Below are positions 11,679-25,255 of a stretch of DNA of 32,000 nucleotides, piece by piece. A program made the translations under genes and the position numbers. Every line of letters begins with the position of its first letter. Within the stretch, counting starts at the first letter, position 1. This DNA is from Geotalea uraniireducens Rf4. GTDB lineage: Bacteria; Desulfobacterota; Desulfuromonadia; Geobacterales; Geobacteraceae. The stretch is from assembly GCF_000016745.1 (NCBI RefSeq), contig NC_009483.1:1560001-1592000 (forward strand). Reading direction: 5' to 3'. The notes under the pieces are model-generated. The model was not told the DNA's origin and did not search any database. It worked only from the letters and a program-made list of their open reading frames with translations.

Positions 11679-11687
11679 CGGCAGGCG

Positions 11688-11762
11688 CGAGGTCCGAGGT
11701 CCGAGGTCCGAGGATCGAGGATCGAGGATCGAGGATCGAGGATCGAGGATCGAGGATCGAGG
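11688..11762 (+). repeat. Heptanucleotide tandem array: (CGAGGTC)x3 (CGAGGAT)x7 CGAGG
   Basis: Counted directly. It starts 10 nt after the metK stop codon and ends 16 nt before the terminator stem. Confidence 0.95.
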
Positions 11763-11778
11763 TAAAACCCTGAATAAG

Positions 11779-11808
11779 AAAGGCCGGTGAAATTTCACCG
11801 GCCTTTTT
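11779..11808. terminator. Rho-independent (probably bidirectional) terminator shared by the convergent metK and response-regulator genes
   Basis: AAAGGCCGGTGAAA/TTTCACCGGCCTTT is a perfect stem, with TTTTATTGTTTT on the + strand and TTTCTTATT on the - strand. Confidence 0.85.
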
Positions 11809-11816
11809 ATTGTTTT

Positions 11817-13741
11817 GTGCGCCAGGCATGGCGCGTGGCGCGTAAGCGCCATCCAATTGGGTATGGTGCCTGATTGGTGACTTGGAGGTGAAAGTCCTCT
11901 TCGGACCCTGATGGTGGGAACCGATAGCTGAACAGCAAGGGTGTCCGGGGCGACCCGGAATCTGAAGGAAGCTGTAGGCAAAGTCCTGGCCCGACGAACA
12001 GGAATCGCATATGAGGCAGCCACATCTGGGCGAGAAGGCAAACAGATTCAAAGCCCGATAACCATCCAGAAAGATGTGGAAGTAGATGCGGCGGGTATAT
12101 GGGATGAAGGTCACGCGCATTACCCTGGGAGGTCTGTCAACCTGCCTTGTGCTACCGGCATCGAGAGGTGCCGGGATGGGTTGGCAGAAGTCAGCAGAGG
12201 CCATACGAGTCGGAATAACCGACCGACAAAGGGCCGAACTTGAAGTAAGCGGACAGGAGCCTTGAGTTTCGATGACGACAGGAGCAGCAGAAGGCCGGGT
12301 TGGGATACCCGGCGCCAGCCCGGAGGGTAGCGGTTGGAAACCGCGAGAGAAAGGGAGAGGTGCGGCAAACGTCACGGGAAGGAAAGCAGCTCACTGGCCG
12401 GAAGCGGCAACGGGACTGATGGAGAAGATCGTCAGTCGCGGCAACATGATGGCGGCATACTCACGGGTAATGCGCAACAAGGGAGCGCCCGGCGTCGATA
12501 ACATGCCGGTAACGGCCCTGAAGGGCTACCTACAGGAGGAATGGCCGCGCATCAGAGAAGAACTGCTGACGGGAACGTATCACCCGCAACCGGTGCGGAA
12601 AGTAGAAATTCCCAAACCGGGAGGCGGCACACGGATGCTGGGAATTCCCACCGTCCTTGACCGACTCATTCAGCAGGCGGTGCATCAAGTTTTGAGCCCG
12701 CTGTTCGACCCTGGTTTCTCCATAAGTTCCCACGGGTTTCGCCCTGGACGGAGCGCCCATCAAGCGATCAAGGCAGCTCGGAAGTATGTAGAGAGCGGCC
12801 TTAGGTGGGTGGTTGACATTGACCTTGAGAAATTTTTCGACCGAGTCCACCACGACACCCTTATGTCGCTGGTGAAACGCAAGGTTGGAGACCGTCTGGT
12901 GCTGTCCCTTATCGACAGCTACCTTAAGGCAGGGATACTTGAAGGAGGAGTGACGTCACCCCGGTTGGAAGGCACGCCGCAAGGCGGGCCTCTCTCGCCG
13001 CTGCTGTCCAACATCCTCCTCGACGAACTGGACAAGAAACTGGAAAGAAGGGGCCATAAGTTCTGCCGCTATGCCGACGACGCAAATATCTATGTTGCAA
13101 CGAGGAGAAGCGGCGAGCGTGTCATGGCCTCAATTACCGGCTACCTGTCCGAGCGGCTCAAGCTCACGGTCAACCAGGGCAAAAGCGCGGTTGACCGTCC
13201 GTGGAAAAGGTCGTTTCTGAGTTACAGCATGACCCGGCACCGCAAACCGCGGCTTACCGTGGCCAAGAAAGCGGCTGCCAGGCTCAAGGCCAACCTCAAG
13301 ACGATCTTTAGGCGGGGAAGGGGTCAGAACATCCAAACCACCGTTGAAGAGACAACCCCGAAACTTAGGGGTTGGTTAAACTACTTTCGGTACGCGGAAG
13401 TAAAAGGCATCTTCGAGGAACTGGACGGATGGCTGAGACGTAAACTGCGTCGCATTCTCTGGAAGCAGTGGAAGCGCCCCAAGACGCGAGCAAAGAAACT
13501 GATGCGGCGGGGATTATCGGAGGCAACTGCATGGCGGTCGGCCACAAACGGCCGCGGCCCCTGGTGGAATGCAGGGGCCGCGCATATGAACAAAGCTGTT
13601 CCGAAATTCTACTTCGACAAACTGGGGCTGGTATCACTCATAGACCAGCTTCACCGACTTCAACGTACTTCATGAACCGCCGTGTACGGAACCGTACGCA
13701 CGGTGGTGTGGGAGGACGGCGGGAGCAATCCCGCCTCCTAC
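11817..13741 (+). mobile_element. Group II intron, class C (IIC)-like, about 1.9 kb
   Basis: The 5' end is GTGCG at 11817. An internal RT/maturase ORF is present. Domain V-like helix at about 13678-13707 (CCGCCGTGTACGG-AA-CCGTACGCACGGTGG) has a 2-nt bulge and a CGC triad instead of AGC. A domain VI-like helix is GGAGGACGGCGGGAGCAATCCCGCCTCC, ending ..CTAC at 13741. It is inserted about 10 nt after a terminator hairpin, in the same orientation. The 3' boundary is good to a few nt only. Confidence 0.85.
12419..13675 (+). CDS. ltrA: Group II intron reverse transcriptase/maturase (no endonuclease domain)
   Basis: KGAPGVDNM (RT0/1), PKPGGGTRMLGIPTVLDRLIQQA, GTPQGGPLSPLLSNILL, RYADDANIYV (YADD catalytic box), and maturase X domain RGWLNYFRYA. 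The C-terminus is GPWWNAGAAHMNKAV..LGLVSL with no HNH. The start was set at MEKIVSRGNMM (12419); the upstream part of the track ORF is intron RNA. Confidence 0.9.
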   Translation: MEKIVSRGNMMAAYSRVMRNKGAPGVDNMPVTALKGYLQEEWPRIREELLTGTYHPQPVRKVEIPKPGGGTRMLGIPTVLDRLIQQAVHQVLSPLFDPGFSISSHGFRPGRSAHQAIKAARKYVESGLRWVVDIDLEKFFDRVHHDTLMSLVKRKVGDRLVLSLIDSYLKAGILEGGVTSPRLEGTPQGGPLSPLLSNILLDELDKKLERRGHKFCRYADDANIYVATRRSGERVMASITGYLSERLKLTVNQGKSAVDRPWKRSFLSYSMTRHRKPRLTVAKKAAARLKANLKTIFRRGRGQNIQTTVEETTPKLRGWLNYFRYAEVKGIFEELDGWLRRKLRRILWKQWKRPKTRAKKLMRRGLSEATAWRSATNGRGPWWNAGAAHMNKAVPKFYFDKLGLVSLIDQLHRLQRTS

Positions 13742-13764
13742 CCGATTTCGTCCCCAACTCCCCG

Positions 13765-13820
13765 TTCCTTTAACCTTTGTCCTCGTTCCTCTATTCTTTG
13801 TCCTCGTTCCTTTGTCCTCG
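13765..13820 (-). repeat. Heptad-periodic GGA-rich repeat array (CGAGGACAAAGGAA-type units at 14/21-nt spacing), read on the minus strand
   Basis: The minus strand reads GCGAGGACAAAGGAACGAGGACAAAGAATAGAGGAACGAGGACAAAGGTTAAAGGAACGGGG. Three copies of GGAACGAGGACAAAG are present, and the array overlaps the last codons and stop of the response-regulator gene. Confidence 0.75.
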
Positions 13821-14522
13821 CGCTTCGCGCGAAAACCTGTACCCCACCCCCCGCACCGTCTGGAAGTAGACCGGTTTTGCCGGGTCCGGCTCGAAATATT
13901 TTCGCAGCCGGACGATAAAGTTGTCGAGGGTCCGTGTCTCGGCATCGGAGGAATAGCCCCAGACGCTTTCCAGCAGAGTTTTGCGCGGTATCGCTTCCCC
14001 TTCCTTCTGGAAAAACAGGGACAGCATCTTCACTTCCAGATCGGTCAGGTCGATCTCCCCCTGGGGCGTTTTGGCCCGGTAGGAGAGGAGAAATACATCG
14101 TTGTCGCCGAAGCGGTAACCTTCTTCAACCGGCTCCGGCCGGTACCAGGCCGAACGGCGCAGCATGCCCCCCACCCGCAGCAGGAATTCATTGAGATTGA
14201 ACGGTTTGGTCAGGTAATCGTCAGCCCCGCCGGTAAGACCGGCGATCCGGTCACGCTCGTCCGAGCGGGCCGTCAACATCAGCACCGGCACCCTCGCATC
14301 GAGCTGCCGGATTTCACGGCAGACGGCAAAACCATCAATCCCCGGCAGCATCACGTCGAGGATGATGAGGTCGAAGCGTTCGTATCTGACCCGTTCCAAG
14401 GCGTCTTCCCCGGTTTCCACATGACTCACCCGGTAATTTTCCAGTTCCAGGTTGAAGCAGATCCCCCGAGCCAGGTGGATTTCGTCTTCAACCAGGAGGA
14501 TGTGCGGTTTGTCTTCGTTCAT
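13791..14522 (-). CDS. OmpR/PhoB-family DNA-binding response regulator
   Basis: ILLVEDE, LIILDVMLPGIDG, LTARS, KPF, and the C-terminal winged helix LT..E..LL..F......R..L...VWG......R.LD..I.RLRKY..TVRGVGYRF. The start is at ATG 14522, forming an ATGA overlap with the kinase stop codon. Confidence 0.9.
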   Translation of the reverse strand: MNEDKPHILLVEDEIHLARGICFNLELENYRVSHVETGEDALERVRYERFDLIILDVMLPGIDGFAVCREIRQLDARVPVLMLTARSDERDRIAGLTGGADDYLTKPFNLNEFLLRVGGMLRRSAWYRPEPVEEGYRFGDNDVFLLSYRAKTPQGEIDLTDLEVKMLSLFFQKEGEAIPRKTLLESVWGYSSDAETRTLDNFIVRLRKYFEPDPAKPVYFQTVRGVGYRFSREARGQRNEDKE

Positions 14523-15484
14523 GCGCATATGCCCCTGTCTGCAAGAGGATCTGCGAGCGGGAGGGTGATGTGGAATGTACACCCTGTCCCCAGTCCCTTG
14601 CTGGTGACGGTTATTTTTCCCCCGTGGGAGTTGATCACCGACTTGACGATGTAGAGCCCCAGGCCGGTGCCGCGGATGTTTTCACCCGGAGTCCGCACAC
14701 GGTAGAACATGTTGAAAATCCTGTCCAGATCGTTTTTGTCCAATCCCTTGCCGTTGTCCTGAAAGGTGAGCAGGCAGTTTTTGCCGCTCTTTTTCATGGT
14801 TACCCGGATGTCGGGGGAAGCGGGCGAGTAGAGGAGCGCGTTCTCGAAGAGATTGCGCAGCGCCATTTCCATTCCTTCGCTGTCGATTTCCGCCATGAGG
14901 GCGTCTTCAGTTTCGATGGTGAGCCTTCCCCCCTCGGGAAGCTCGCTCCGTTTCCTTTCCATGTATTCCTTGACGAAGGCGGAGAAATCAATGGTCTTTA
15001 GTTCCACTGCCAGTTGCCGGTATTCGATGCGGGTGGCCATCAGAAGGTTGCTGATGAGATTGTTGAGCCGCCCGGTGTCCGACAGCATGGTGTCGAGGAA
15101 ATTATCCAGCTTTTCCCGTGGTGGGTTACGCAGTTTGATGGTTTCCAGATGGAGCTGGATGGAGGCGAGGGGGGATTTCAGCTCATGGGTCAACTGGGAC
15201 ATGAAGCTCCGCTGCTGCTGATAGAGCTTTGCCTGACGCCGCCAGTAGAGAAAGATGACGTAGACCCCTGCCAGGATGAGCAGGAGCATCAGGAGCCCTT
15301 CCACGAGCACCAGCCAGTTAAGCCCGTGGCTGATCAGTTCCGGCTTGTAGCGCTGTGCCAGGTCCCGGAATTCCCTGTTGCGGCCGAGGAACCAGTAGAT
15401 CCAGAATATGACGAGCAGTATCCATACCAGCTGGATACCGATTAAAGCAGAGAGTGGGGTAAAGAGTTTTTTATACCATTTCAT
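14519..15484 (-). CDS. Sensor histidine kinase (2 TM, HisKA + HATPase_c)
   Basis: H-box is SFMSQLTHELKSPLASI, N-box is LFENALLYS, and the G-boxes are QDNGKGL and GTGLGLYIVK. Two N-terminal TM helices are separated by only a short loop. Confidence 0.9.
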   Translation of the reverse strand: MKWYKKLFTPLSALIGIQLVWILLVIFWIYWFLGRNREFRDLAQRYKPELISHGLNWLVLVEGLLMLLLILAGVYVIFLYWRRQAKLYQQQRSFMSQLTHELKSPLASIQLHLETIKLRNPPREKLDNFLDTMLSDTGRLNNLISNLLMATRIEYRQLAVELKTIDFSAFVKEYMERKRSELPEGGRLTIETEDALMAEIDSEGMEMALRNLFENALLYSPASPDIRVTMKKSGKNCLLTFQDNGKGLDKNDLDRIFNMFYRVRTPGENIRGTGLGLYIVKSVINSHGGKITVTSKGLGTGCTFHITLPLADPLADRGICA

Positions 15485-21148: not shown

Positions 21149-21175
21149 CCCCGCGCTGCGGCGCGGGGAATTTTT
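21149..21175 (+). terminator. Strong rho-independent terminator
   Basis: CCCCGCGC-tgcg-GCGCGGGG followed by AATTTTT. Confidence 0.75.
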
Positions 21176-21223
21176 CGGCAGTTGCAGGCAGAGAAATTAA
21201 ACAATGGTGGACGAGGGGGGGCC

Positions 21224-21790
21224 ATGGGTGATGCAGAATTGCATGGATATGCGATAGCGACGGAGATGGCGGGGGATGAGGGGGTCCAGCTGCTCTCCGG
21301 CCTGGGCAAGGGAGAGTTGATAAAGATCATCATTGATGACGCGAAAAACTGGCTGGCCCACGACGGGCTCTGGTTCCAGGCAGTGGAGAGCGTCCACGGC
21401 ATGGACGAGGCCATTGCCGCCGACCGGGCCGCCTGGGAGAAGTTCACCGTCATCGAGGCAAAGCGGATCATGGAACGCCTCGGCATGAAGCCCGGCGGCG
21501 GCATCCCTGCCCTGGTGGAATGCCTCAAGCACCGCCTCTATGCGCGGCTGAACCTCCAGGACGTCATGGAACAGAGCGACAGCCGGGTGGTGTTCCGCAT
21601 GGTGGATTGCCGTGTCCAGTCGGCTCGCAGGCGCAAGGGGCTCGCCGACTTCCCGTGCAAGACGGTGGGAATCGTCGAGTACGCGGAGTTCGCCAGGACC
21701 ATCGACCCGCGCATCAGGACCCGGTGTATCGCCTGTCCGCCGGATGCGCATCCGGATCAATACTGGTGCGCCTGGGAATTTACTCTTTGA
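21224..21790 (+). CDS. Hypothetical Cys-rich protein (possibly DUF6125-like; name from memory, unverified)
   Basis: The ORF contains LAHDGLWFQAVE...AAWEKFTVIEAKRI and the C-terminal pattern C..Q....K....FPCK......C..CPPD.....WCAWEF. The start was set at ATG 21224 after GAGGGGGG; the track ORF begins at a TTG. Confidence 0.65.
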   Translation: MGDAELHGYAIATEMAGDEGVQLLSGLGKGELIKIIIDDAKNWLAHDGLWFQAVESVHGMDEAIAADRAAWEKFTVIEAKRIMERLGMKPGGGIPALVECLKHRLYARLNLQDVMEQSDSRVVFRMVDCRVQSARRRKGLADFPCKTVGIVEYAEFARTIDPRIRTRCIACPPDAHPDQYWCAWEFTL

Positions 21791-21975
21791 GGAACGAGGA
21801 AAAAGGAGCGAGGAACGAGGAACGAGGAAAAAGGAACGAGGAGCGAGGAAAAAGGAACGAGGAGCGAGGAAAAAGGAGCGAGGAACGAGGAAAAAGGAGC
21901 GAGGATAATGGCGCGAGGTGAGAGCCTAGAGCCTAGAGGTTTTCCTCGAACCTCGAACCTCGATCCTCGATCCTC
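21791..21975 (+). repeat. Heptad-periodic purine-rich array with a short inverted block
   Basis: Counted directly: 12 forward CGAGG cores spaced 7 or 14 nt apart, then 2x AGAGCCT, then TTTT, then an inverted block (CCTCGAA x2, CCTCGAT x2, CCTC). The array fills the whole intergenic space from the stop codon at 21790 to about 30 nt before the icmF start. Confidence 0.9.
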
Positions 21976-22003
21976 ATATATACGTGAAACGAGGAGAACC
22001 GAC

Positions 22004-25000
22004 ATGCACACAACCGCCGCAGCACCCTATACATCCAAAAACAAGATCCGTTTCGTGACCGCAACCAGCCTGTTCGACGGTCACGACGCAGCTACCAATA
22101 TTATCCGTCGCATGCTCCAGTCCTCGGGGGCCGAGGTGATCCACCTGGGGCACAATCGCTCCGTGGATGTGATCGTCACCGCCGCCATTCAGGAGGACGC
22201 CCAGGGGATAGCGGTCAGTTGCTACCAGGGTGGCCACGTGCCGTTCTTCAAATACATCTGCGACCTGCTCAAAGAGCGGGGCGCCGGGCATATCCGGGTC
22301 TTCGGCGGTGGCGGCGGGGTGATCGTCCCCGAAGAGATCCGGGAGATCGAAGGCTACGGGGTGAGCAAGATATTCTCACCCGAAGACGGCCGGCGCATGG
22401 GGCTGCAGGGGATGGTCAACCACATGCTGGAGCTATGCGATTTCCAGCCGGAACGGGACCTGGATACGGAAATCGAACGGCTTAAAGGACGGGACATCCG
22501 CTCGGTCAATACCCTCATCTCCCTGGCCGAACAGGCGGTCCACGAGCATACGGAAGGGTATGGAAAGGTCAGGGAGCGGGTTCGCGCCATGGGGAGCAAG
22601 GTGCCGGTACTGGGCATTACCGGCACCGGCGGGGCGGGGAAGAGCTCCCTTACCGATGAGCTGGTGCGCCGATTGATACGGGATTTCCCGGAGAAGAGCG
22701 TGGCGATCCTGGCGGTAGACCCTTCCCGGCAGCGGACCGGCGGCGCGCTCCTGGGCGACCGGATCAGGATGAACTCCATCAATACCGACCGGGTCTACAT
22801 GCGCTCGCTGGCCACCCGCGACTCCCGTTCCGAGCTGTCCGCCGCCATTGAAGACGCCATTGCCGTGGTGCGGGCGGCAGGCTTCGACCTGGTGATCGTC
22901 GAGACCTCCGGCATCGGCCAGGGGGATGCCGGGGTGGTGGAGATCTGTGACGTATCCCTCTACGTCATGACCTGCGAATTCGGCGCGCCGACCCAGCTGG
23001 AAAAGATCGACATGCTCGACTTCGCCGACATCGTCGCCCTCAACAAGTTCGAGCGGAAGGGTTCGGAGGATGCCATGCGCAACGTGCGCAAGCAGTACCG
23101 GCGCAACCGCAACCTGTTCGACCTCGCCGACGAGGAGCTGCCGGTGTTCGGCACTATCGCTTCCCAGTTCAACGACCCCGGCACCAATGTCCTTTACCGG
23201 GCGGTGCTCGACCGGTTCAACGAGAAGAAGGGGCTCGGCTGGCAGTCGCAGCTTGCCATTACCGAGCGGGAGAGCCTGAAGAAGTACATCATCCCATCCG
23301 ACCGGATTCATTACCTGGGGGAGATCGTCCAGTCGGTGCGCGGCTACCGGAAAACCGCGGCGGAGCAGGCGCAGATCGCCCGCACCCTCTTCCAGCTCAA
23401 GGGGACCCGTGCCCTCCTTGCCGACAGTGACGCGACCGCGGCGGGGGTTGACCAACTGATAGGATATTACGAGGCCAAGCTCCGGGATGAGCCGCGCCGG
23501 ATCATCGAGAGCTGGCCGGGAATGAAGCAATCGTACCGTCAGGACGCCCTCGTGACAAGTGTGAGGGACAAGGAAATCCGCACCGAACTCTACACCACCT
23601 CCCTCTCCGGGACCAAAATCCCCCGGGTCTGCGTCCCCGATTACGAGGACTGGGGGGAGATCGTCAAGTGGAGCATGAAGGAGAACGTGCCGGGCTCGTT
23701 CCCCTTTACCGCCGGGGTCTTCCCCTTCAAGCGGGTCGAGGAGGACCCTAAACGACAGTTCGCCGGCGAGGGGACCCCGGAGCGGACCAACCGGCGCTTT
23801 CACTACCTTTGCCGGGACGACGGCGCCAAGCGCCTTTCCACGGCCTTCGACAGCGTTACCCTCTACGGCGAGGACCCGGATTTTCCTCCCGACGTCTATG
23901 GCAAGGTGGGGGAGAGCGGCGTCTCCATCTGCACCGTGGAGGACGTGAAGAAGCTCTATGCCGGCTTCGACCTCTGCGCCCCCTCCACCAGCGTCTCCAT
24001 CACCATCAATGGCCCGGCGCCGATGATGCTCGCCATGTTCTTCAATGCGGCCATCGACCAGCAGGTGGACCGGTTCCGCGGGGAAAAGGGGCGTGAGCCC
24101 GCCGCCGCCGAGTACGAGCTGATCCGGGCTTGTACCCTGCAGACCGTGCGCGGCACTGTCCAGGCCGACATCCTCAAAGAAGACCAGGGGCAGAACACCT
24201 GCATCTTCTCCACCGAGTTCGCCCTGAAGATGATGGGTGACATCCAGCAGTACTTCATCGACAAGCAGGTGCGGAATTATTACTCCGTCTCCATCAGCGG
24301 CTACCACATCGCCGAGGCCGGGGCGAACCCCATCAGCCAGCTCGCCTTCACCCTTTCCAACGGCTTCACCTATGTGGAGTATTACCTTTCCCGGGGGATG
24401 CACATCGACGACTTCGCCCCGAACCTCTCCTACTTCTTCTCGAACGGCCTCGACCCGGAGTACACGGTGATAGGCCGTGTGGCGCGGCGCATCTGGGCGG
24501 TAACCATGCGGGAGAAATACGGCGCCAACGAGCGGAGCCAGAAGCTCAAGTACCACATCCAGACCTCCGGCCGCTCGCTCCATGCCCAGGAAATGGACTT
24601 CAACGACATCCGCACCACCCTACAGGCGCTGATGGCCCTCTACGACAACTGCAACTCGCTGCACACCAACGCCTACGACGAGGCGGTCACGACACCCTGC
24701 GAGGAGTCGGTGCGCCGCGCCATGGCGGTGCAGATGATCATCACCAAGGAGTTGGGGCTGAACAGGAACGAGAACCCGCTCCAGGGGGCGTTCATTATCG
24801 ACGAACTGACCGACCTGGTGGAGGAGGCTGTGCTGGCCGAGTTCGAAAGGATCGACCAGCGGGGCGGGGTGCTCGGCGCCATGGAGACCCAGTACCAGCG
24901 GAGCAAGATCCAGGACGAGTCCATGCTTTACGAGCACAAGAAGCACTCGGGCGAGCTCCCCATCATCGGCGTCAACACCTTCCTGAACCCCCGCGCCGAT

Positions 25001-25255
25001 GAGGACGGATACCAGGTGCCGGGCGAACTGGCCCGGGCTACCATTGAAGAAAAGGAGCAGCAGATTCGAAACCTGCGCGCCTTCCAGGAGCGGAACAGGG
25101 TAAAGGCCCCGCTGGCCCTGAAGCGCCTCCAAGAGGTGGCTGTCAGTGGCGGCAATATCTTTGCCGAGTTGATGGAGACGGTGAAGTACGCCTCTCTCGG
25201 CCAGATCACCAGGGCGTTGTTTGAGGTGGGGGGCGAATATCGAAGAAACATGTGA
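22004..25255 (+). CDS. icmF: Fused isobutyryl-CoA mutase (B12-binding domain + MeaB-like G-protein + mutase catalytic domain)
   Basis: The N-terminal B12 motif is [13 protein letters not shown]...GHNRS. The P-loop is [13 protein letters not shown], followed by ALNKFE. The C-terminal region is a methylmalonyl-CoA-mutase-like TIM barrel ([27 protein letters not shown]). The start was set at ATG 22004 after GAGGAGA, giving 1083 aa; the 32 upstream codons in the track ORF are translated repeats. Confidence 0.9.

Follow-up and report, generated by a model that had tools for sequence, protein, structure and literature searches.

The spacer between a gene of the DUF6125 family and icmF, which encodes the fused isobutyryl-CoA mutase of Geotalea uraniireducens Rf4, is occupied by a purine-rich array of tandem heptanucleotides followed by a block of the inverted unit type, and the question it raises is whether this element serves icmF or belongs to something wider. 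Both genes lie in a 32,000-nt stretch of contig NC_009483.1 (positions 1,560,001 to 1,592,000 of the forward strand), referred to as the window; coordinates are those of the window unless preceded by G000, which designates the source genome (5.14 Mb). The element is best read, with a probability of about 0.72, as a variable heptanucleotide-repeat hairpin of a genome-wide family, lodged in a permissive intercistronic spacer where its effect, if any, would be generic. Much less confidence attaches to any particular RNA-level effect than to this overall reading. A dedicated regulator of icmF is unlikely, and the array is not specific to this gene, since it is one of 199 heptad loci of the genome, most of which have units that do not resemble Shine-Dalgarno (SD) sequences.

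Tandem Repeats Finder (TRF) reports three arrays in the spacer, at 21789-21905 (period 7, 16.7 copies; 91% matches for a super-period of 21 nt), at 21921-21938 (AGAGCCT, 2.6 copies), and at 21944-21975 (CCTCGAA type, 4.6 copies). The first heptad, TGAGGAA, opens with the stop codon TGA of the upstream gene (21788-21790); CGAGGAA or CGAGGAG then alternates with AAAGGAG or AAAGGAA, and the forward arm closes with CGAGGAT, AATGGCG, and CGAGGTG. The 12 CGAGG cores all fall within 21795-21914 at spacings of 7 or 14 nt exclusively, and the 19 N[G/A]AGG cores found from 21788 to 21935 share a single phase modulo 7. With at most one mismatch, CGAGGANCGAGGA matches 19 times in the window, as compared with 0.29 +/- 0.52 times in dinucleotide shuffles, none of 100 shuffles reaching 19. 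On the other side, CCTCG recurs four times in 7-nt steps at 21944-21965. The two arms are separated by 23-38 nt devoid of any open reading frame (ORF), as is also the case in a close relative (L094, see below), and the centre sequence AGAGCCTAGAGCC occurs once in the whole genome. The element ends 28 nt before the icmF start codon (ATG 22004), and GAGGAGA at 21991-21997, 6 nt upstream of this ATG, is the icmF ribosome-binding site. The periodic array, its inverted block and this GAGGAGA site, already described in an initial annotation made from the letters of the sequence, are borne out by the sequence and by TRF. The same annotation counted around 25 SD-like sites; such sites are indeed present, but the figure is an overcount, as 18 are found inside 21791-21975 (5 GGAG and 13 GAGG), next to 16 overlapping AGGA motifs.

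These AGGA motifs suggest a possible CsrA-binding platform, with 16 copies in 185 nt sequestering the single CsrA homologue (csrA, G000 4754595-4754753) in the manner of the GGA-rich sponge RNAs of gammaproteobacteria. We consider this extremely unlikely: most GGA motifs are predicted in stems or in long unstructured runs and not in hairpin loops, the element is not conserved, and GGA-bearing arrays occur in both orientations. Furthermore, in CsrA systems of the FliW type the antagonist is a protein and not a sponge RNA, which also counts against a platform of this kind.

The complementarity of the two arms and their capacity to form alternative long hairpins, which the initial annotation had predicted, are supported in silico. 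The 231-nt RNA has a predicted minimum free energy (MFE) of -63.7 kcal/mol, versus -50.6 +/- 4.1 kcal/mol for shuffled sequences (z = -3.2). The MFE structure accounts for a frequency of 0.0016 in the ensemble, and, according to the base-pair probabilities, the inverted block pairs with forward units in at least four registers, namely 21808-28 (the strongest), 21836-49, 21857-70, and 21878-91. In the predicted ensemble, the inverted block is 81% paired, exclusively with forward units, and pairing between this block and the icmF SD is absent. The L094 version is predicted to adopt a much longer fold, at -104.8 kcal/mol. Such folds bear on the proposal that icmF translation, or its coupling with the upstream gene, is adjusted by the SD-like sites together with the anti-SD-like CCUC block, either through titration of 30S subunits or through competition with the icmF SD (CGAGGAG) for the CCUCG block. 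This SD, located 14 nt past the inverted block, has the sequence of a CGAGGAG unit, the predicted ensemble favours forward units over it as partners of the CCUCG block, and an AGGAG lies 8 nt upstream of another ATG (21908), all of which would suit this mechanism. It is nevertheless very unlikely, as sister arrays elsewhere in the genome are mostly non-SD-like and CGAGG-type arrays are found in both orientations, and because of the behaviour of the orthologous spacers described below.

Whole-genome TRF analysis reports 241 clusters of period 7, versus 11 of period 6 and 28 of period 8. They merge into 199 loci that total 14.4 kb; 176 loci (88%) fall between genes or within spurious 5' extensions of ORFs, whereas the non-coding share of the genome is only ~17%, both shares being approximate as they depend on gene calls from a home-made codon-usage gene finder (3901 genes, 83% coding). 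The units belong to dozens of types, for example AACCTCG, ACCGCCG, ACCACCG, AACGTAG, AACTGGG, and CCCCAGT. Same-strand genes flank 152 loci, and convergent genes another 21. Divergent spacers are depleted, with 10 loci against an expectation of ~18-21% (P 7e-7 to 3e-9). Where the flanking genes share a strand, a median of 5 nt separates the upstream stop codon from the array, and the spacer minus its array has a median length of 47 nt; the arrays therefore occupy short operon-type spacers, from the stop codon to the next ribosome-binding site. The 72 pairs of adjacent period-7 clusters comprise 42 inverted complements, including the icmF locus, 3 direct pairs, and 27 unrelated ones, with loops usually of 2-20 nt, and this 42:3 ratio makes the hairpin layout typical of the heptad family. 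At least nine other loci share the forward CGAGGAN/AAAGGAN array followed by an inverted (AACCTCG)n, with a loop that differs at each locus; among the genome loci with this grammar, the AGAGCCT loop was found at icmF only. Relative to transcription, this composite grammar is in sense orientation at six loci and antisense at three, while CGAGGTT is sense in 11 cases and antisense in 12. Of 188 arrays, 118 have their G-rich strand as the sense strand (versus 70), and of 238, 147 have it as the leading strand (versus 91), a bias that is uninformative because co-orientation of genes with replication amounts to 66%. Beyond the source genome, arrays of four CGAGGNN units are present in 24 of 151 sampled genomes of the order (Desulfuromonadales), patchily over four families, and a reversed-pattern control returns almost nothing.

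The family is unevenly spread and poses problems for gene calling. The 250-kb bin at 4.25 Mb (G000 4250000-4500000) holds 32 heptad loci, against a mean of ~9.5 per bin. The ORFs G000 47902-50265 and 1216155-1218962 pass through CGAGG/AACCTCG hairpin arrays (48639-48735 and 1217540-1217656, respectively); each ORF most likely consists of two genes joined by a stop-free repeat, although these may be in-frame arrays within real genes.

About 30 distinct orthologous DUF6125-icmF spacers were compared, drawn from species genomes, public genome contigs, and metagenome contigs; counts over related genomes are not phylogenetically independent, and L094 is the one close relative at the icmF locus. Fourteen of these spacers measure 13-45 nt and contain no repeat, with the gene order DUF6125-icmF maintained, and almost all have a ribosome-binding site of the GGAGG type at their end. 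Such a site is found at this position in most orthologues; L004 and L014 have GGAGGAGAAC. Eleven spacers contain unrelated palindromes of a type common in these genomes, and four contain heptad hairpins made of other units, GGTTCTA (L009), GTGAATG (L012), GCGAATN (L076), and CNCTRGG (L108), the last two read by eye. Hairpin-forming inserts are found in about half of the spacers, some being GTAGGGGCG...CGCCCCTAC-type palindromes or C-rich/G-rich palindromes (L004, L007, L008, L010, L013, L014, L020, L099, and L109) and others the heptad hairpins (L009, L012, L076, and L108), one of them in an Elusimicrobiota metagenome-assembled genome.

L094, a 390-kb metagenome contig with flanks 94.8% and 98.8% identical to the window, is the only one of the ~30 to possess the same array as the source genome. 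It shares exactly the first units, the centre (CGAGGAT, AATGGCG, CGAGGTG, AGAGCCT twice, AGAGG, and TTTT), and the 28-nt tail. The forward arm, in contrast, has 18 reshuffled heptads versus 17 here, the inverted arm consists of 12 CCTCGAA units plus CCTC versus four units here (CCTCGAA twice and CCTCGAT twice), and the whole spacer measures 279 nt versus 216 nt. The comparison of array length in relatives proposed in the initial annotation thus reveals a variable number of units, and the two arms change independently and fast between near-identical genomes, as expected from slippage. One Logan contig also encodes the exact IcmF protein; as this contig terminates within the inverted block, it is uninformative on array length.

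These comparisons leave little room for a role through SD-like sites or translational coupling that would be specific to icmF. The inverted units triple between near-identical genomes (4 to 12) with no matching change in the forward arm (17 to 18), so that the stoichiometry demanded by SD/anti-SD titration is not kept, and the array is absent from the 14 short spacers of the same gene order. The initial annotation had named, as evidence that would speak against its proposal, orthologous loci devoid of any array with gene order and expression retained; with respect to gene order, this is what these 14 spacers display.

The variation in unit number is also relevant to an element acting at the DNA level, either as a phase-variable contingency locus, where 7-nt units would shift the frame between ATG 21908 and icmF, or as a set of iteron-like protein sites, the 21-bp super-period being equivalent to two helical turns. 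ATG 21908 is in frame with icmF here, and its equivalent in L094 lies 152 nt from the icmF ATG versus 96 nt here (56 nt more), so that it is out of frame; in L094, this ATG opens a 56-codon upstream ORF overlapping icmF. The regular super-period (91% matches) would fit protein sites, and among 34 hairpin loci the sense strand has a better MFE than the antisense at 19 and a worse one at 15 (P 0.62, no difference), hence pairing could matter equally in RNA or in DNA. However, no promoter-like site is located in or near the array, the many differing units across loci are difficult to reconcile with a single sequence-specific binding protein, and the divergent, promoter-bearing spacers are those depleted of arrays; overall, either form of this explanation is highly improbable. 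The same observations dispose of the 32-codon N-terminal extension of icmF that starts at ATG 21908, which the initial annotation rightly took as spurious: it is an artefact because the same ATG is out of frame in L094, and in the orthologues whose spacer measures 13-45 nt, icmF begins at the position matching ATG 22004, mostly behind a similar GGAGG-type ribosome-binding site.

Heptad arrays have one further association, with genes of the family PF05635 (23S rRNA intervening-sequence proteins, Avd-like). Of the six PF05635 genes in the source genome, five have a heptad locus at 91 nt or less, a proximity shared by only 1.4% of the genome, and the sixth is flanked by arms of period 8/9. In 12 other genomes of the order, the best PF05635 locus is bracketed by period-7 arrays in every case (12/12), and these arms are mostly reverse complements where their consensus units are comparable. 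The cysD-cysN spacer of three genomes (G036, G087, and G045) comprises a forward CGAGGNN array, a PF05635 gene, and an inverted CCTCGNN array, the last CGAGGAT unit supplying the ATG of the gene. The icmF element has the CGAGGNN/CCTCGNN arms of this cassette type and is devoid of the ~120-codon PF05635 gene between them. It might therefore be an ORF-less relative of such cassettes, in which the gene was lost or never gained, comparable to a miniature inverted-repeat transposable element, and whose stem would have the function of the cassette stem, for instance to let a double-strand RNase excise the element in the way of rRNA intervening sequences. The proximity of heptad arms to PF05635 genes in all these genomes and the arm types of the three cysD-cysN cassettes point that way. 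Against it, nothing in the 38-nt centre, identical in L094, is recognisable as a remnant of a PF05635 gene, the 199 heptad loci greatly exceed the 6 PF05635 genes in number, 106 of the 151 genomes of the order possess PF05635, the majority lacking CGAGGNN arrays, and at least one cassette of the source genome has direct and not inverted arms. We therefore rate this origin of the icmF element as unlikely. Comparison of the icmF loop with the ends of PF05635 cassettes revealed no convincing homology, and no useful publication emerged when the literature was searched for PF05635/S23p in combination with repeats. The broader idea, that hairpin-type heptad arrays in general, that of icmF included, represent the gene-less form of undescribed operon-embedded PF05635 cassettes with arms cut by a double-strand RNase, has a small chance of being correct; if it were, polycistronic mRNAs would be cut in a programmed manner at every hairpin heptad array.

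The class of heptanucleotide repeats to which the preferred reading, a variable hairpin of a genome-wide family, assigns the element is already known (Aklujkar 2009/2010, Rehm 2015, MacGregor 2015), and the icmF array is a newly characterised member of it. It displays the features of bacterial heptanucleotide long simple-sequence repeats (SSRs), that is, at least three tandem copies, a period-7 excess outside coding sequences, and variation at the locus between relatives. Within the same bacterial family, the main text on Geobacter metallireducens describes heptanucleotide repeat families such as GGACCGG x4, in 49 copies, and MTYCTGA x5 (Aklujkar et al. 2009, PMC2700814), and that on G. bemidjiensis describes intergenic direct repeats of 6-42 nt, with repeats of some kind in 12% of intergenic regions (Aklujkar et al. 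2010, PMC2996986). According to these two main texts, the repeats are annotated as putative regulatory elements; they resemble the icmF array in being intergenic tandem heptanucleotides or direct repeats, and differ from it by their fixed, short copy numbers and their units. Neither main text mentions CGAGGNN/CCTCGNN hairpin arrays, their variable length, or the icmF locus.

The heptameric SSRs of Xanthomonas (GGGAATC) and Nostoc (GGGGAYT) are intergenic, genome-wide, and of period 7 only; some of their inverted pairs are able to form stem-loops, their length and sequence vary between close species, and slippage has been proposed (Rehm et al. 2015, PMC4692102). The general excess of heptamer repeats in bacteria is attributed there to Mrazek et al. 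2007 (as cited in PMC4692102). The intergenic location, the period, the inverted pairs, and the variation of the same spacer between close relatives are common to both systems. The Xanthomonas and Nostoc repeats, however, are G-rich and were studied as G-quadruplex formers, whereas the icmF array, from another phylum, has only GG doublets, and inverted pairing dominates among neighbouring arrays here (42:3). In marine Beggiatoaceae, TAACTGA repeats form 169 intergenic sets near start codons, with a patchy distribution over phyla and a proposed role in translation (MacGregor 2015, PMC4679880). These too are intergenic heptamer arrays of patchy occurrence, but they consist of a single dominant unit in 2-6 copies, almost always direct (one indirect) and forward upstream of ORFs, unlike the many units, longer arrays, inverted pairs, and two orientations observed here. 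For the heptamer repeats upstream of Nostoc rec genes, an effect on translation or transcription has been proposed (bioRxiv 10.1101/2022.06.06.494920).

The short tandemly repeated repetitive (STRR) sequences of heterocystous cyanobacteria likewise comprise several tandem-heptanucleotide families scattered through the non-coding DNA of one genome; they differ by their cyanobacterial host and their three canonical units, the icmF array having other units and a hairpin layout. The canonical units are CCCCAGT, TTGGTCA, and CAACAGT. The source genome has a (CCCCAGT)n array at G000 4468949-4469031, which we take to be the STRR1 unit. Assignment of the icmF array to STRR in the strict sense was rejected, as the flanking genes indicate a host of the Desulfuromonadales and not a cyanobacterium, and the units are CGAGGAN/AAAGGAN. 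Repetitive extragenic palindromes (REP) and bacterial interspersed mosaic elements (BIME) of enterobacteria are functional analogues only: they are repeated hairpin-forming elements located in transcribed spacers and at operon 3' ends, yet a REP consists of one imperfect palindrome (~35 nt, with a conserved head) and is mobilised by REP-associated tyrosine transposases (RAYT), while the icmF arms are tandem heptads with a locus-specific loop. REP/BIME stabilise the mRNA upstream of them; those close to the stop codon of the preceding gene can reduce its expression. The source genome has 14 Y1-transposase (PF01797) genes, none of them near a heptad locus, the nearest distances ranging from 826 nt to 74 kb. 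A RAYT/REP-type element was therefore rejected, in view of the tandem-heptad arms and of the absence of any PF01797 gene closer than 826 nt to a heptad locus.

Under the favoured reading of a heptad hairpin in a permissive spacer, the arms would be resized independently by replication slippage, and arrays would persist only where lengths not divisible by three do no harm. Assuming that DUF6125 and icmF are co-transcribed, which is probable, the transcribed array would form, between the two cistrons, a long and imperfect stem-loop able to adopt several registers. Its effect might be that of a site for a double-strand RNase (RNase III type) or of a barrier to 3'-exonucleases, uncoupling the fates of the two cistrons. 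Any effect would then be that of a generic intercistronic hairpin, not that of an icmF-specific switch, and would not act via the SD-like sequence. The 42:3 excess of inverted neighbours and the avoidance of promoter-bearing divergent spacers indicate a structure-forming element in transcribed DNA, not a plain microsatellite.

Several points weigh against this reading. Slippage alone explains neither the excess of inverted pairs nor the recurrence of CGAGGNN in 24 of 151 genomes and four families. As there is no strand-specific sign of RNA selection (19:15), an origin or a role at the DNA level fits equally well. Hairpin inserts occur in roughly half of the orthologous spacers, clearly more than the 12% occupancy in G. 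bemidjiensis, so the DUF6125-icmF spacer may be a favoured stem-loop site, and a stem-loop could be favoured there and not merely tolerated. Lastly, co-transcription, processing, and any effect on icmF are inferred.

The features of the locus and of its sister arrays are collected in Table 1. The transporter operon that precedes the DUF6125 gene probably ends at the terminator-like hairpin, and DUF6125, icmF, and the thioesterase gene thus probably form one separate operon. The start of the DUF6125 gene is uncertain, the longest ORF beginning at TTG 21182, and the exact-protein look-up returned no record for three start variants of its product. Other candidates were considered for the spacer and rejected. 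These are an intrinsic terminator and an internal promoter for icmF, as neither a promoter-like nor a terminator-like site was found inside 21791-22003 and the stem is followed by AUAUAUACG, and a cobalamin riboswitch or another Rfam family, for which the array returned no match at E up to 1 nor at the gathering threshold.

Table 1. Positions of the features discussed, in window coordinates unless G000 (source genome) is indicated
Feature	Coordinates	Strand	Remarks
Terminator-like hairpin	21149-21178	+	8 G-C pairs and T-run; 5' of the DUF6125 gene
DUF6125 gene	21182-21790	+	Pfam PF19620, E 2.8e-89
Forward purine-rich heptad array	21788-21920	+	19 in-phase units, 12 CGAGG cores
Centre/loop	21921-21943	+	AGAGCCT x2, AGAGG, TTTT; same in L094
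Inverted block	21944-21975	+	CCTCGAA x2, CCTCGAT x2, CCTC; complementary to CGAGG cores
Unique tail with icmF ribosome-binding site	21976-22003	+	Identical in L094
Spurious icmF ORF extension	21908-22003	+	32 codons from ATG 21908; in frame here, out of frame in L094
icmF, fused isobutyryl-CoA mutase	22004-25255	+	1083 aa; Pfam B12-binding, MeaB GTPase, MM_CoA_mutase
Sister array (CGAGGTC)x3 (CGAGGAT)x7 CGAGG	11680-11765	+	Between metK stop (11678) and metK terminator hairpin (~11780-11808)
Sister array, CGAGGAC/AAAGGAA-type units	13750-13820	-	Complementary in type to the metK array
Group II intron part, RF02001	11944-12118		
Group II intron part, RF01998	12152-12234		
Group II intron domain V/VI, RF00029	13675-13746		
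Group II intron reverse transcriptase (RT)/maturase ORF	12272-13675		
PF05635 gene	G000 4460462-4460749		23S rRNA intervening-sequence protein/Avd-like
PF05635 gene	G000 4467622-4467933		As above
PF05635 gene	G000 4470923-4471231		As above
PF05635 gene	G000 3775230-3775535		As above
PF05635 gene	G000 1969421-1969735		As above
PF05635 gene	G000 991587-991898		As above

Two sister arrays of the same window lie in the convergent spacer between metK and an OmpR-type response-regulator gene. The metK array is in a 3' untranslated position, between the stop codon and the intrinsic terminator, and the minus-strand array starts at the stop codon of the response-regulator gene (13791-14582, minus strand). 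A group II intron (11815-13750, plus strand) directly follows the metK terminator hairpin and interrupts an otherwise continuous succession of CGAGG array, terminator, and complementary array. Placement just after a terminator is typical of terminator-targeting (class C) bacterial introns.

In terms of annotation, the array before icmF generates a false 32-codon extension of this gene and breaks one short-read assembly (the Logan contig), and it should be masked as a variable repeat, not recorded as a regulatory site. The value of the icmF locus resides in a near-identical relative with another number of units and in ~30 orthologous spacers with which to compare it. It thereby adds to the old question of why some bacteria gather hundreds of 7-nt tandem repeats in their spacers.

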